This document shows, one piece after another, positions 38,855-53,200 of a stretch of 64,000 nt of DNA; positions within the stretch are counted from its first letter, which is position 1, and each line of letters begins with the position of its first letter. This DNA is from a virus. A program made the translations under genes and the position numbers. The stretch spans positions 1 to 64,000 of the IMG/VR virus record IMGVR_UViG_3300045988_163776, one strand, 5' to 3'. Under the pieces are notes generated by a model that saw only the letters and a list, made by a program, of their open reading frames with translations, did not search any database and was not told the DNA's origin.

Positions 38855-41406
38855 ATATGTAGATACAACCGCAATTATGTAGGTAATTGGTTCTGTATTT
38901 AACAATGTAGGTTTATTAGATTTATCTGATAAATATACTATAACAGATGAAGATTTTTGTAATGAATTTCATAAAATAGTATTTGGTGCGATTTATAAAA
39001 TATATGAATTAGGAGCAAAGGAAATAACTTTAGAAACAATATCAGATTTTTTGTCAACACGTCCAAAGGCGTAGGCTATTTATAAGCAATATAAAGGTGA
39101 GGAATGGTTGCTTGAAGTTTCTGAAAAAAGTATGCCAGCAACTTTTGATTATTATTATAATCGTATGAAAAAAATGACTTTATTAAGAGAATTCGATAGT
39201 CATGGGATAGATGTAACTTTTATTTATGATCCAGATAATATCCTTGATACAAAAAAGAAACAATTATAGGAAGATAATTTGGATAATGCTTCATTAACAT
39301 CTATCGCTCAAAAAGTAGTGGATAAAATTGAAGAAATTAGATATAGATATGTTGATAATGAATTTGATGAAATAACATCGGCTGGAGATAATATTTTTAA
39401 TTTAATAGATAGCTTAGAAAAAAATCCAGAAGTAGGAATTCCTTTATATGGTCCGTTAATTAATACTGTTACTCGAGGTGCAAGATTAACTAAGTTTTAT
39501 TTGCGGTCAGCACCAACTGGTTGTGGTAAATCTAGATCAATGATAGCTGATGCTTGTTATATTGGTTGTAATATGATTTATCACGAAGATTTTGGTTGGA
39601 TACATAATGGTACTGCTGAACCTACTTTATTTATTTCAACAGAACAAAAAGCAGATGAAGTGCAGACAATGATGTTAGCTTTTTTATCTAATGTAGACGA
39701 AGAACATATCTTAAATGGAACTTATTAGGGAGATGAAAAAGAGCGAGTTTTAAAAGCCGCTGAGATTTTATCTAATAGTCCTATTTATATAGACGAACTT
39801 CCAGATTTTTCTTTGCAAGACGTTGAAAATCATATAAAAAAAGGCGTGCGGGATTATGGTGTAAAATATGTGTTCAGTGAAAACTAAGGACAATGAAATA
39901 CTTTTCCGCAAATCAAGCGGGGTTATTTAAGTTTTTAAATAGCTAACGGGGAAGCCTAAGTTCAATAAGAATATGGTAATCCCGTGGGAAAATTTTTGGA
40001 CAACTTTCGTTTGGAAATAATCGACTACTTTCATACCATATGAAAGGAGAGATTTATATATGAATGGAATAATTTATTGCTATACTAATTTAGTTAATGG
40101 TAAACAATATATTGGTCAAACTATAGACCAAGAAAGCAGAAAAAAAGCTCATAAAAGTGCAATGATAAATGAAAAAAATTGTGAATATAATACACCTTTA
40201 CATAGAGCTTTTAGAAAATATGGATATGAAAATTTTTCTTATGAAATTTTAGAAGAAAATATTGATAATTTTGATGAATTAAATGAAAAAGAAATTGCTT
40301 TTATTAAAGAATTTCAGTCTTAGGTTCCAAATGGCTATAATATTGAAGCTGGAGGAAAAAATGCTTCTAAACCAAAAACAGAAGAGTAGAAAGAAAAATT
40401 AATGAAAGCAATGGCTGTATTGTCAGAAGAAGAAGTTATTGAATTACGAATTGCATATATGAATGGAGAAAGTCCTACTAAGATTTATAAAGAAAAGTAT
40501 GCTAATAGAATGCATTATAATTCTTTTTTAAATATATGGTCTGGACGAAAATATAAATATATTATGCCAGAAGTAATTCAAAAAGGTCGTCATACAAAAT
40601 TAAATGCTGAATTAGTAAAAGAAATAAAAATTAAACGAAGAGATAAAAAAACCTCCTATCAGAAATTAGCAGATGAATATAACGTTTCAAAATCTACTAT
40701 TGCTGATATATTTAAAGGGAGAACATGGAGAGATGTCCAAATTTAACCTGTATCGACTATCCCCTAAGCCTTTTGGGCAGGGGAGTAGGGCTACTATTGA
40801 TACGTAGTTAAGTTTTAGGAAACGAAGCTTATGAAAACCGAAAAGGTATCCTCTTCTAAGGAAGAGTAAGAGTTAGTCAGTGCCATTGGAAACAATGGAA
40901 TAACATGTTTAGATTACATGCATACAAGTATTAAAATATTAGAAGAAATAACAAGACGTTCTGGTGGCGTTAAATTAAGAGAAGACAATATCTTATTTAT
41001 GATGTCTATAAAATTAAAAGATATATGTAATCAATTAGGCATCTTTATTATGTCAGCTACATAGCTAAATAGTAGCTATGTAGACGCAGAGACACCAGAT
41101 TAGAATTTGTTAAGAGGAGCTAAGTCGATCGCAGATAAGATCGATTTAGGTATGATTATACTAGGGGTTTCCCCAGAAGACTTAGCTAAATTGGATCCAA
41201 TCATAAAAAATAGAGGATTTGAATATCCTAATATGAAAATATCAATATATAAAAATAGACGAGGCTCATATAAAGGAGTATATTTATGGTGCAAAGCAGA
41301 TTTATCTACTTGTAGAATAACACCTTTATTTTGTACTGGCTATGACTTTATATTTAAAGAAATAGATAATACAACAATTAAGGTTGATGAATCTGCGTTT
41401 GAATAA
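38844..41406 (+). CDS. DnaB-family replicative helicase, split by a group I intron (exons 38844..39874 and 40908..41406); 6 in-frame TAG
   Basis: N-terminal DnaB-like domain. Walker A RSAPTGCGKS. Exon junction ...GVKYVF|LDYMHTS restores the H3 motif. Exon 2 contains SATQLNSSYVDAETPDQNLLRGAKSIADKIDLG. Confidence 0.6.
39875..40907 (+). other. group I intron (IA2-like core) in the DnaB-like gene, carrying a GIY-YIG HEG
   Basis: Core AGCTAACGGGGAAGCC...GTAATCCCGTGGG resembles the T4 td intron P3-P6. P7-like CGACTATCC lies after the HEG. The exon ends in U before the 5' splice site and omega-G is at 40907. The 3' element is shared with the RecJ and DnaE introns. Confidence 0.6.
40060..40746 (+). 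CDS. GIY-YIG homing endonuclease (intron-encoded), 2 TAG
   Basis: GIIYCYTNLVNGKQYIGQT...YNIEAGG. C-terminal HTH-like DNA-binding module. Confidence 0.65.
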
Positions 41407-41424
41407 AAAAAGGAGATAAGTAAT

Positions 41425-41589
41425 ATGAAAGGTTATGTAGAATACAAGATGCCAATAGAACAAATGAAGGCTATTTTAAAGACAAGAAAAAACAAAGAAA
41501 AAAAGGGTAACAATCAAAAATATTTATGTGATTATGTAAAAAATAATTATGGAATATTAGGAACTGTAACAAAAGTAATAGGAGAATAA
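41425..41589 (+). CDS. hypothetical small protein
   Basis: 55-aa ORF after AGGAG. Confidence 0.35.
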   Translation: MKGYVEYKMPIEQMKAILKTRKNKEKKGNNQKYLCDYVKNNYGILGTVTKVIGE

Positions 41590-41591
41590 TT

Positions 41592-50224: not shown

Positions 50225-50249
50225 TTTTTTAATAAAAATATGATATTAT
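50221..50249 (+). promoter_or_regulatory. promoter TTGATT-17-TATTAT (TG-extended)
   Basis: The -35 overlaps the TGA stop of the methyltransferase gene. Confidence 0.5.
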
Positions 50250-50295
50250 ATATATGAAATAAAAAAATAAAAGATAAAGGAGTTTAAAATATAGT

Positions 50296-53200
50296 ATGGG
50301 ATTTTTTGATGGACACAATCACACAGAATATTCTAATCTTCGTTTACTTGATTGTATAGTAAAACCAAAATATCTTATAGATAAAGCTATAGAAAAAGGT
50401 TTGGATGGTATTGCGATAACAGACCATGAAGCTTTATGTAGCCATATGATAGTGAATCAATATGCAAAAAAGATTCGTGAAACCAATCCAAATTTTACAA
50501 TTGCTTTAGGTAATGAAATTTATTTAACAGATACAAGAGAAAAAGGGCAAAAATATTATCACTTTATTTTAATTGCAAAAGATAAAATTGGTTATCGAGC
50601 ATTAAAAGAATTAAGCTCTATTGCTTGGTATAATATGTATGAAGATAGAAGAATGGAAAGAGTTCCTCTTTTAAAGAGTGAACTAGCAGAAGTCCTGGAA
50701 AGATATAAAGGTCATGTTATAGGAACTACTGCTTGTTTAGGAGGGGAACTCTCCTCTTGCGCTTTGAATATGTCTTTATGTGAAGAAGTAAAAGATGTGC
50801 AGACCGCAAATAGTTATAAACAACAAATTATTCGTTTCTTACAATATTGTACTAATGTTTTTGGTAAAGATGATTTTTATATAGAATGCGCTCCAGCTAA
50901 TAATGAAGACCAAATAAGAGTTAATAAAAAATTATTAGAAATAGCAAAGACATTCGATATAAAAATGACTACAGCGACTGATACACATTACATAGATAAA
51001 GAAGATAGATTTATTCATAAAGCTTATTTAAACTCAAAGGGTGGAGAAAGAGAAGTTGATAGTTTTTATGAATTTTCTCGATTGATGGATGAACAAGAAG
51101 TAAGAGAATTATTATTACTAAGTTTTGAAGAAAATGAAATTAATATAATTTTAAACAATACTTTAGAGATAAAAAACAAAATAGAATTTTATAGTTTAGA
51201 AAAACATCAAAGTATTCCAGAAGTGCCTGTGACTGATTATTCTAAAAATGCTTGGTGGGGAGTTAATAATGATTATGCGGATGAGATGAATAATTATCCT
51301 ATTTTAAAATCTTTATTTACTTCAGATAATATTCAAGAGCGCTACTGGATAAACGAATGTTGGAAATCTTTAGAGAACAAAAAAGGATTATGGATTGATA
51401 ATCTAGATTATGTTGCTCGATTAGAAGAAGAAGCAAGGGTAAAAAGAATTATAGGAGAAAAATTGCAAACTTGTATGTTTGCTTACCCAAATACTTTAAA
51501 GCACTATATTGACCTATTTTGGGACTGCGGAAGTACAGTTGGTGCTGGAAGAGGTTCAGCTTGTGCAGCGCTTAATCATTATCTTCTTGGCATTACACAA
51601 CTTGATCCTATAGAGTGGAATTTACCTTTCTGGAGATGAATTAGACGTCCCCCTTTATCGTGAGATAAAGTTAAAAATTTCGTGAACCCTATTACTCAGG
51701 GGTGTGAAAAGAACGATAGTTATGGTAGGAAATGACCATTTAATCTTTTTGCTAACCGGGGAGCCTCAGCAAGTAAAGTTGGAGGTAATCCAGTGCCAAG
51801 CCTTAGGAATAAGGAAGGTTTAACGACTATCCTATATGGAGTAGAGTAGAAGATGAGTTGCTACTCGAAGTGCGAAAATCTTTTGCTATTTTTGGACCAA
51901 AACGGCAAAAGTATCCATAATAAAATTAATATATAATAGAATAACAAAGGAGTTGTATTATATGTTAATTTATAAAATAACCAATTAGATAAATCAAAAA
52001 TGCTATATTGGTCAAACCATTAAGCCCGCGAAAATTAGATGGAAAGAACATCAATAGCATGCTTTTGGCTCACATAAAAATGACCAAAATAAAGCGTTGT
52101 ATCGAGCTATAAGAAAATATGGACTTGAAAATTTTACTTTTGAAGTTATTCAAGATGAAATAGAAACATATGAAGAATTAGATAAAGCTGAAATATATTG
52201 GATACATCATTTTAACAGTTTTGTTAATGGTTATAATTCTACTTTCGGTGGTTAGAAATATCACGAAATTCTTCCTATTTCAGAAATCATCTAGGATTAT
52301 AAAATAACTAAAAGCGCAAGAAAGACTGCTTTAAAATTTAATCTTGATCACAGCACAGTAGATGATATTCTTAATGCTGCTGGGGTAGAAAGATTTACTT
52401 TTAGATAGGCCGCTGGACAAATGATAAAAATATCGAAAGATGATTTTGAAAAAATTTTTGATTCAGTAAGAGATTGTGCTGAATGGTTTGTAGAAAATAA
52501 AATTCCTAGAACAACAAAAGTAGAAAGCGTTCGTACCGGTTTAAAGACAGCAAGAGCCGGCAAAGGATATTATTATGGATACTTAATAGAAAATATAGCA
52601 AAAGAATAAGATATAGTCTGCGCCATTAGAAATAATGGATAACGTGATCTTAATGACGAGAGAACTGAACTTGGAGACGTGGACATTGATCTTGCTCCAT
52701 CTAGACTTCAGAAAATATTTAGTGCAATCCGTGAAGAAAGAGGAGAATTAGGTTTAGTCCAAGTTTGTACTTTTGGAACAGAAGGGACAAAGAGTACAAT
52801 CCTTACTGCTTGTAGAGGCTATAGGTCAGAGGAATACCCAAATGGAATTGATAATGATGAAGCATTATATATATCTTCTTTAGTACCAGTAGAAAGAGGA
52901 TTTTTATGGAGCTTAAAAGATTTAACTGAGGGTAACGAAGAAAAAGGACGAAAACCTTCTAAAATATTCATTAATACAGTACAACAATATCCTGGCCTTT
53001 TAAAAATTATGAAAGGTATCGAATCTTTAGTCTGTCGCAGAGGAAGTCATGCTTCTGGAGTTATCTTTTTTGATGAAAATATTTATGATGATGCAGCAAT
53101 TATGAGAACTCCAAGTGGAGCCTTAGTTACACAATGGGACCTTCATATGCAAGAGGCTGCTGGTTCGGTAAAATATGACTTTTTATTAACATCTGTCCAA

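Follow-up and report, generated by a model that had tools for sequence, protein, structure and literature searches.

What is the short element that ends three interruptions in one viral genome, and how did three genes come to share it? In a 64,000-nucleotide (nt) stretch, IMGVR_UViG_3300045988_163776 positions 1 to 64,000 (the window), the genes for DnaB, RecJ and DnaE (DNA polymerase III alpha) are each interrupted, and each interruption ends in a copy of one 32–33-nt element. Most likely, the element forms the 3′-terminal domain of group I self-splicing introns that resemble T4 td (subgroup IA2 type). The three introns would be separate members of one family, each carrying a GIY-YIG homing endonuclease gene of its own, and homing into cognate DnaB, RecJ and DnaE sites, not gene-to-gene copying in this genome, is their most likely origin. 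This explanation as a whole, comprising ribozyme 3′-end identity, family membership and separate acquisition by homing, is given a probability of about 0.88. The window has 30% G+C, and its long open reading frames (ORFs) all lie on the plus strand, as do the intron features described below.

Intron boundaries

The boundaries were set by a close relative. Viral contig IMGVR_UViG_3300045988_155865, compared over window positions 35844–55805, has 94–99% nucleotide identity around these genes, encodes uninterrupted DnaB, RecJ and DnaE, and is precisely without all three introns. In blastn the alignment skips from window position 39853 to 40912 in DnaB and from 43663 to 44717 in RecJ, and is broken exactly at 51637|52647 in DnaE. 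The predicted spliced exons of all three genes are colinear with the relative with zero indels. Because the relative is intron-less at these sites, the introns span 39875–40907 (DnaB, 1033 nt), 43660–44715 (RecJ, 1056 nt) and 51638–52646 (DnaE, 1009 nt). The 5′ exons end in U39874, U43659 and U51637, and the introns end in G40907, G44715 and G52646; the last exon base is thus U and the last intron base G in all three.

Splicing in silico, with exons joined after the U and before the base following the G, yields open frames in which the Pfam domains DnaB_C, DHH and DNA_pol3_alpha, and NRDD in a fourth intron-bearing gene, run unbroken across the junctions. Self-splicing activity is predicted from these sequences and agrees with the exact colinearity between the exons and the intron-less allele. 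A preliminary description of this DNA had called the three interruptions introns; domain continuity and the uninterrupted relative bear this out. It had also named the finding that would overturn its view, an element made of exon sequence such as a conserved protein motif. The boundaries place the element in the intron and exclude the exon.

The 3′-terminal element

The sequence AGTCWGYGCYATTRGAAAYAATRG has exactly three matches in the window, at 40875–40898, 44684–44707 and 52615–52638, all on the plus strand. No further copy was found in the window with up to 3 mismatches allowed, and 100 dinucleotide shuffles gave zero matches (0 expected by chance). The full 32–33-nt elements finish at 40907, 44715 and 52646, the last intron base in each case, directly 5′ of exon 2. 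The preliminary description had reported this common element accurately, and, within the window, the search that it proposed for the rest of the genome added no copy. Pairwise identity of the elements is 85% for DnaB and RecJ, 82% for DnaB and DnaE, and 69% for RecJ and DnaE.

Each element has the same parts. In DnaB (40874–40907) UAGUC at 40874–40878 is followed by A and by the helix P9.0, formed by GUG (40880–40882) and CAU (40904–40906); P9, CCAUUG-GAAA-CAAUGG, is at 40883–40898, and G40907 is terminal. In RecJ (44683–44715) the parts are UAGUC at 44683–44687, A, P9.0 GUG (44689–44691) with CAC (44712–44714), P9 CUAUUG-GAAA-CAAUAG at 44692–44707, and G44715. In DnaE (52614–52646) they are UAGUC at 52614–52618, U, P9.0 GCG (52620–52622) with CGU (52643–52645), P9 CCAUUA-GAAA-UAAUGG at 52623–52638, and G52646. 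In P9.0 the three bases after UAGUC-N thus pair with the three before the terminal G, enclosing a 6-bp P9 with a GAAA loop. P9 and P9.0 differ among the three copies by compensatory changes: relative to DnaB, a C-G pair of P9 is U-A in RecJ, and in DnaE a G-C pair of P9 is A-U and a U-A pair of P9.0 is C-G.

These parts suggest a function for every base. UAGUC is the 3′ strand of P7, the helix forming the guanosine-binding site. P9.0 would bring the terminal G, the predicted 3′ splice site, into the guanosine-binding site for the second splicing step. The fold is most likely clamped by the GAAA tetraloop of P9, which would dock with a tetraloop receptor in P5. The element would then be conserved since each base has a ribozyme function, and it is common to a very large phage intron family.

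Family-wide search and covariation

Searching with the 3′ half of the RecJ intron in blastn gave ~78% identical matches in Enterococcus phages EF1/EF5 and in Lak megaphages; the EF1/EF5 match lies inside a split DNA polymerase III alpha gene. A pattern of P7 plus P7.1 was found in at least 119 IMG/VR stretches, and downstream in nearly all of them stands (A/G)A(U/G)AUAGUCAGUGC-stem-GNRA-stem′-AUAA.CA(C/U)G. Among 90 distinct 3′ halves, the P9 loop (L9) is GNRA in 85 and the stem is 6–7 bp long in 83, with 45 different P9 stems.

A covariance model, R1, was built from 3′ halves with annotated helices (42 sequences, MAFFT alignment A1). Over 100 sources it gave 129 matches, often 2–4 per contig, EF5 and Lak among them; a search of relatives for the element had been proposed in the preliminary description. 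Scores were 162 bits for the window's DnaB intron (40754–40907), 159 bits for RecJ (44559–44715), 151 bits for EF5, 110 bits for Lak-A1 and 31.5 bits (E = 2e-6) for the T4 td intron. The two halves of the DnaE intron scored 29.6 and 25.7 bits, and the nrdD intron 11.6 bits. In Lak-A1, P7 is GGUCA/UGACC, which amounts to three compensatory pairs. Two weak matches in the window were put down to chance: 55131–55285 falls within a kinase-like ORF and 62195–62314 within a RuvC-like one.

The helices covary across the family. In the R1 alignment of 128 distinct sequences, which was fitted to the model and leans towards the structure, 96.7% of cells are paired, vs 69% after shuffling and 29–49% with partners slid. 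P9 is 98.8% paired with double changes at all 6 pairs, P7.1 96.7% and P7.2 99.6% with double changes at every pair, and hpC, an extra hairpin described below, 99.1% and P8 89%, both with double changes. P7 is 100% paired, in a set where the search pattern fixed its 5′ strand in most sequences. In P9.0, 94.5% of cells are paired and each of the 3 pairs has undergone double changes; its register in the first extraction had been chosen by requiring pairing. The plain MAFFT alignment A1 gives the same picture for each helix except the length-variable P8. The covariation for which the preliminary description had proposed a check is present in P9, P9.0, P7.1, P7.2, hpC and P8.

Catalytic core

The rest of the introns agrees with a group I core. 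The 5′ halves carry UAAC(G/C)GGG...AAUCCCGU modules resembling P4–P5 of T4 td, and the P4 module UAAC(G/C)GGG...AAUCCCG is present in all four window introns, the nrdD intron included; a regular-expression scan of the window for more td-like P4 modules returned only these four. In the DnaB and RecJ introns the ORF is followed by CGACUAU, and the GACUA within it pairs with the element's UAGUC to form P7. The GACUA/UAGUC pair is found in all four introns. UAGUC is preceded by a standard J8/7, (A/U)AAGA(G/U)(A/U), and the conserved J8/7 AAGAUAUAGUC and J6/7-P7 ..ACGACUA are present in the window introns. P7.1 and P7.2 lie between the P7 5′ strand and P3′, as in IA2 introns (T4 td type).

Rfam recognizes fragments of this core. 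Intron_gpI (RF00028) matched DnaE at 51755–51829 over P4-P6, J6/7 and the P7 5′ strand, which aligns to the consensus (model 60–148, 21.5 bits, E = 0.0018), and matched P4-P5 of DnaB in part at 39946–40028 (model 60–140, 17.6 bits, E = 0.016); both matches arose only with narrow sub-ranges as query. The same model gave no match on the whole window at the Rfam gathering threshold (50 bits) and none on 36–64 kb at E ≤ 10, and Rfam at E ≤ 0.1 found no group I match at the EF5 and Lak loci. The sub-threshold scores probably reflect the ORF insertions and the insertions of P7.1, P7.2 and hpC. One contig that carries a family intron (L008) has two other group I introns, at 2225–2460 and 4864–5085, that pass Rfam gathering (59 and 52.5 bits), so different intron types coexist in these phages.

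The 5′ core of the DnaB intron (39883–39985), assigned from the sequence and the Rfam P4-P5 alignment, begins with P10 and the P1 guide, CUAAG-GACA at 39883–39892, placed by inspection only. Read from the sequence are the P3 5′ strand AUACUUUUC at 39898–39906 and two hairpins at 39906–39920 and 39923–39942. J3/4 and P4 follow at 39942–39951, P5 with the 11-nt GAAA receptor CCUAAG...UAUGG at 39952–39979, and P4′ at 39980–39985. The 3′ core (40747–40873), assigned by helix covariation and by a P3 test given below, comprises P6′ and J6/7 (40747–40753), the P7 5′ strand (40754–40760), P7.1 (40761–40783), P7.2 (40791–40807), hpC with loop UUUUAGGAAACGAAG (40808–40831), AACC and the P3 3′ strand (40833–40849), P8 (40850–40866) and J8/7 (40867–40873). 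By inspection, guides with a G opposite the 5′-exon U are GACA at 39889–39892 in DnaB, GUCCU at 43672–43676 in RecJ, and GUCCCC at 51647–51652 in DnaE, the last with one A.C mismatch.

The preliminary description had noticed about 90 nt shared by DnaB and RecJ after the ORF. These blocks (40747–40845 and 44552–44649) are 80% identical over ~100 nt and are the rest of the core: P7, P7.1, P7.2, the extra hairpin and P3′.

The predicted L9-P5 docking has sequence correlates. The P5 of DnaB carries the classic 11-nt GAAA receptor, and RecJ combines a GAAA L9 with UCUAAG...UAUGA, the closing pair covarying. In the family, the receptor NCUAA[GA]...[UC]AUGN′ occurs in 30 of 45 sequences with a GAAA L9 vs 1 of 17 with other loops (Fisher p = 2.6e-5, a value that ignores kinship among the sequences). 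In GUAA-loop sequences P5 is a plain helix. An L9-P5 contact is known from td-type introns, and the family association fits it.

Intron layouts

The preliminary description had given the three introns a common layout. This holds for DnaB and RecJ, which have the ORF in the P6 loop, then the conserved core, then the 3′ element. It does not extend to DnaE, where the ORF is in the P8 loop, P3 adjoins J3/4 as in td, and hpC is absent. P3 of DnaE pairs UUUUUGC (51746–51752) with GCGAAAA (51872–51878), directly upstream of J3/4-P4. Its P8 consists of 11-bp and 13-bp inverted repeats flanking the ORF, TCTTTTGCTAT/ATAGCAAAAGA (51879–51889 and 52595–52605) and AGTATCCATAATA/TATTATGGATACT (51910–51922 and 52571–52583). 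A local hairpin, CTTTTGC...GCAAAAG, had been considered for this P8 and was replaced by the long-range 11-bp pairing, which abuts J8/7.

In the DnaB/RecJ type, the strand before P8 probably pairs with a segment just after the guide (AUACUUUUC/GAAAAGGUAU; AUAUCUUUU/AAGAGAUAU). In a restricted test, cognate P3 duplexes had a mean of -5.3 kcal/mol vs -3.6 for non-cognate ones, and 0 of 10,000 permutations reached the observed value; the unrestricted duplex test was not significant (p = 0.06). With the P3 5′ strand adjoining the guide, two hairpins, both covarying, would stand between it and J3/4, unlike td. The strand directly before J3/4 was rejected as a P3 candidate, being the 3′ arm of a covarying local hairpin.

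The hairpin hpC follows P7.2 in the DnaB and RecJ introns, and the GCUUAU after its invariant loop is its 3′ arm. The 15-nt loop UUUUAGGAAACGAAG lies at 40813–40827 in DnaB and 44617–44631 in RecJ (A1 columns 71–93). Across ~80 family members the loop hardly changes, whereas the stem that closes it shows free covariation. No partner with which the loop might pair or dock was found.

Homing endonuclease genes

Each of the three introns holds a GIY-YIG ORF. The DnaB ORF (40060–40746, P6 loop) has Pfam GIY-YIG and helix-turn-helix matches and 2 in-frame TAG, the RecJ ORF (43837–44544, P6 loop) a Pfam GIY-YIG match (E = 1.3e-11) and 1 in-frame TAG, and the DnaE ORF (51962–52609, P8 loop) a Pfam GIY-YIG match and 5 in-frame TAG. 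The 3′ end of the DnaE ORF overlaps P8a′ and P8′. Identity among the predicted endonucleases is 30–43% and is mostly confined to the catalytic region, the N-terminal ~100 aa. The preliminary description had spoken of exchanged endonuclease cargo, and the endonuclease genes do differ. The best match of the DnaB intron ORF is the EF5 intron ORF, with 38.6% identity over 223 aa, full length. Endonuclease activity is predicted for all three.

Origin of the three introns

The preliminary description had read the shared element as one lineage spread to at least three essential genes. The element is a family-wide part of the ribozyme, as the 129 R1 matches indicate, and its presence in all three introns is therefore no sign of a recent shared ancestor. 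Membership of one homologous intron family is supported; spread within this genome to three genes is not supported, given closer relatives in other phages, a different layout in DnaE and divergent exon tracts at DnaB and RecJ.

In their 3′ halves the DnaB and RecJ introns are 73.7% identical and rank 15th–18th to each other among 88 other sequences, and DnaE is 56% identical to either; these comparisons rest on only ~150 nt. Each intron has closer relatives in other phages (82–86% in the 3′ half). Introns at the same RecJ site are among those nearest to the RecJ intron (85%), and the nearest relatives of the DnaB intron (82–85%) are at the '..DGAHI' site of another gene on other contigs. In other phages, family members occupy the window's DnaB site at 9 loci and its RecJ site at 3, and the sites used in other contigs number at least 4 in DnaB, 2 in RecJ and 3–4 in DnaE.

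Among close relatives, introns are present or absent at precisely the same site in DnaB, RecJ and DnaE; the direction of the change, gain or loss, is an inference. At the DnaB junction 18 of 60 positions (30 nt each side) differ from the intron-less relative, in surroundings that are 99% identical; at the RecJ junction 6 of 30 differ (15 nt each side). The mismatches are mostly synonymous or at third codon positions. At the DnaE junction 0 of 30 differ (15 nt each side); since the site is identical in the intron-less relative, it should be a cleavable homing site. The mismatch clusters may have been left by co-conversion, when an intron homed in from a diverged allele of its own host gene. For phage and bacterial group I introns, homing is known to co-convert flanking exon sequence (PMC3984707).

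Recent spread of one lineage within the genome, by ectopic transposition or reverse splicing followed by a swap of endonucleases, is unlikely. It would account for one homologous family with the 3′ element in all three members, for the same layout and 80% identical core of DnaB and RecJ, and for the many related contigs that bear 2–4 family copies. Site switching does occur in the family, as the DnaB core closest to introns at another gene's site indicates. Such a spread is nevertheless opposed by the low mutual rank of the DnaB and RecJ 3′ halves among other-phage sequences and by the 56% identity of DnaE to both. DnaE is also unlike the others in its ORF loop and P3 architecture and is without hpC, the endonucleases are alike mostly in the catalytic domain only, other phages hold family introns at the same sites, and the exon tracts around the DnaB and RecJ introns are divergent, as they would be had each intron been imported together with flanking sequence from a foreign allele of its gene.

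Several observations weigh against homing of td-like ribozymes as the whole account. Introns at the same DnaB site are only 71–75% identical to the window's DnaB 3′ half, which is closer to introns at the site of another gene, so cores move between sites on longer time scales; the short compared length stated above applies here as well. The mismatch clusters could also have arisen because the intron-less relative was selected for sites that resist the endonuclease. On the structural side, even ORF-less family members fall short of Rfam gathering (9 loci: L107, L021, L060, L020, L096, L116, L008, L025 and L101), the DnaE P1 contains the A.C mismatch, and DnaE has a GAAA L9 and a P5 without the canonical GAAA receptor. 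The structural lean of the R1 alignment and the kinship behind the L9-receptor test count here too, and independent support for P9.0 comes from the three window junctions and from the model-based, itself structure-leaning, alignment. Under either reading of the mismatch clusters, the data favour separate family members that homed to specific sites over recent copying between genes of this genome.

That the element works as DNA, as an endonuclease binding or cleavage site, a terminator or a dispersed repeat, with a hairpin incidental to RNA catalysis, is very improbable. It is a short inverted repeat, always beside endonuclease genes, and homing endonucleases recognize sequences near insertion sites. 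However, homing sites lie in the exons of intron-less alleles, outside the intron, and the hairpin has no following U-run. The stem sequence varies freely, with pairing and the GNRA loop kept; the GACUA partner of UAGUC is as far as ~800 nt upstream, and the two strands show compensatory changes in a Lak phage; and L9 loop type correlates with a distant P5 motif. The chance that the element is an exon or protein motif, or the interruptions assembly or frameshift artefacts, is negligible: sense TAG does fragment standard ORF calls into what could pass for split genes, but the contiguous genes of the close relative, which already refute this, skip exactly 1033, 1056 and 1009 nt, the elements sit upstream of the junction, and their variation tracks RNA base-pairing and not codons.

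Further DnaB sites were seen in other contigs. A second site at ~residue 415 (window ~41090, LLRG|AKS) is empty in the window and holds ORF-less family introns in other contigs (L060, L020, L107, L096 and L008). L060 and L020 have two family introns each, a few hundred nt apart; in L060 both are in DnaB, at ~residues 345 and 415. Sites at ~residues 373 and 400 are also used.

The nrdD intron and TAG recoding

A fourth intron interrupts nrdD at 57554–58511 and contains an HNH_3 endonuclease ORF (57751–58344) without in-frame TAG. In addition to the NRDD domain made continuous by splicing, 80 uninterrupted NrdD homologues span the junction; IMGVR_UViG_3300045988_155865 is not among these loci. 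The P4 module, TAAACGGGC...AATCCCG, lies at 57607–57669. This td-like group I intron is more distant from the other three and has in common with them only the J8/7-P7′ stretch AATATAGTCT. The preliminary description had likewise seen only a short shared stretch, and the low R1 score agrees.

TAG is a sense codon in this window: once it is read so, plus-strand ORFs of 100 aa or more cover 58 kb in place of 44 kb, and conserved positions of GIY-YIG motifs coincide with in-frame TAGs. The sole tRNA detected by ARAGORN is tRNA-Leu(UAA) at 105–181, and no suppressor tRNA was detected by it in the window. In-frame TAG is absent from the ORFs of 100 aa or more in roughly the first 21 kb (414–21111). 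Among the replication and nucleotide-metabolism genes in 24400–63200, DnaB has 6, RecJ 9, DnaE 2 and NrdD 3, and the intron endonucleases of these genes have 2, 1, 5 and 0. By motif inspection, four more ORFs resemble homing endonucleases (61306–62153, 32748–33492, 33821–34846 and 48124–48792), the first with a GIY-YIG-like motif at its start and several in-frame TAGs. No ribozyme was found beside these four by R1 or the P4-module scan, and they appear free-standing.

Relation to known introns

Among the closest known relatives is the T4 td intron. The core order in the window introns, P3, P4-P6, P7, P7.1, P7.2, P3′, P8, P7′, P9, is that of td, the td order being checked here against the td sequence only. 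T4 td reads CGACUAUCCC-UUU-GGGGAGUAGGG...GAUAGA-P8-GAGAUAUAGUCUGAUC-UGCAUG-GUGA-CAUGCA and carries GAUAUAGUC followed by a GNRA-capped P9. The window introns have near-identical CGACUAUCCC..GGGGAGUAGGG and (A/G)AGAUAUAGUC motifs, the P4 module UAA-CGGGG...AAUCCCGU, P7, P7.1 and J8/7 motifs in common with td, and a P9 that follows P7′ at once and is capped by a GNRA loop. The P6-loop GIY-YIG ORFs of DnaB and RecJ recall I-TevI in td, R1 matches td (E = 2e-6), and the placement of P3 in DnaE is td-like. In contrast, td runs ~60 nt past P9 to its terminal G, whereas the window introns run 8–9 nt and are closed by the 3-bp P9.0. The DnaB/RecJ type also differs from td in having hpC with its invariant 15-nt loop between P7.2 and P3′, and probably in a P3 5′ strand directly after the guide with two hairpins before J3/4. 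Compared with the T-even introns (td, nrdB, nrdD/sunY), the hosts here are DnaB, RecJ and DnaE, and the endonucleases contain sense TAG.

By R1, phages EF1/EF5 (MF001358, MF001361) and Lak (MK250015 etc.) carry the same subfamily, with 151 bits for EF5 and 110 for Lak-A1. The EF5 intron has a 5′ core, a GIY-YIG ORF, a CCUGUAUCGACUAU... core and then AGUCAGUGC-hairpin(GUAA)-AUAUACACG before exon 2; its end reads AGUCAGUGC-CUAUAG-UAA..., a P9 with a GUAA loop, then AUAUACACG. It differs in its DnaE insertion at ~residue 840 vs 447 in the window, in its GUAA L9 and in a P5 that is a plain helix. The EF5 GenBank record annotates proteins only, with the ribozyme absent and one neighbouring HNH ORF noted as 'Phage intron', and the Lak-A1 record has no annotation at all.

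Group I introns of Herelleviridae (Twort, SPO1, Bastillevirinae) occur several per genome or gene, in DNA-metabolism genes, with subgroup IA similarity (PMC11878797). In known phages HNH and GIY-YIG genes lie in ribozyme loops, and nuclease type is decoupled from ribozyme lineage (PMC3984707; PMC11878797). The established scope covers Tevenvirinae, Twort-like phages and Bastillevirinae, and the 'IA2' subgroup is heterogeneous (PMC3984707; PMC11878797). The hosts in those studies are DNA polymerase, terminase, thymidylate synthase and ribonucleotide reductase, and DnaB and RecJ are not among the hosts listed. A recoded endonuclease in a group I intron was reported in TGA-recoded 'Agate' gut phages by Borges et al., who proposed that recoding delays endonuclease production until late infection (bioRxiv 10.1101/2021.08.26.457843). 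The likeness is an intron endonuclease inside an early or replication gene with in-frame reassigned stops. The difference is that TAG is sense here and the DnaB, RecJ, DnaE and NrdD exons also contain in-frame TAG, so recoding is not endonuclease-specific.

Most relatives in this subfamily come from viral contigs of uncultivated gut phages and from genome bins of Clostridia. Megablast of window positions 38.8–53 kb against GenBank phages gave zero matches, which places the phage itself outside that collection, and blastn matches to the hpC subfamily occur in only 16 of 50,697 GenBank phage records (EF1, EF5 and Lak). In GTDB genomes the family motif was found in 26 stretches, mostly in gut Clostridia bins, with one isolate match on a 254-kb contig of Blautia glucerasea MSK.18.94. 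The GTDB matches are probably prophages or mis-binned phage contigs that hint at host range.

Significance

The element is real, yet it is commonplace within a phage intron family that is very widespread, and the current understanding of group I introns is unchanged. The three introns are additions to the known phage family and possibly represent an uncatalogued subclass. Tentatively, and at somewhat less than even odds, the DnaB/RecJ type is an undescribed structural subclass of IA2-like phage introns, missed by Rfam, using several sites and abundant in gut phages. Its marks may be hpC with the 15-nt UUUUAGGAAACGAAG loop, a long P3 with its 5′ strand directly after the guide, and a minimal 3′ end of P9.0 and P9; this hpC subclass may be less well charted than phage group I introns generally. 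If so, it would be abundant in uncultivated phages of gut Clostridia and in Lak megaphages, repeatedly targeting several sites in DnaB, RecJ and DnaE. The Rfam group I model would miss it and leave fragmented calls of replication genes in genomes many of which are also TAG-recoded.

The near-identical intron-plus and intron-minus phages provide a clean natural example of homing polymorphism, with the DnaE site still identical and the DnaB and RecJ sites recoded at synonymous positions. Introns and TAG recoding together fragment DnaB, RecJ, DnaE and NrdD for standard gene callers. A purpose-built covariance model of the R1 kind would put annotation right in many genomes of gut phages.

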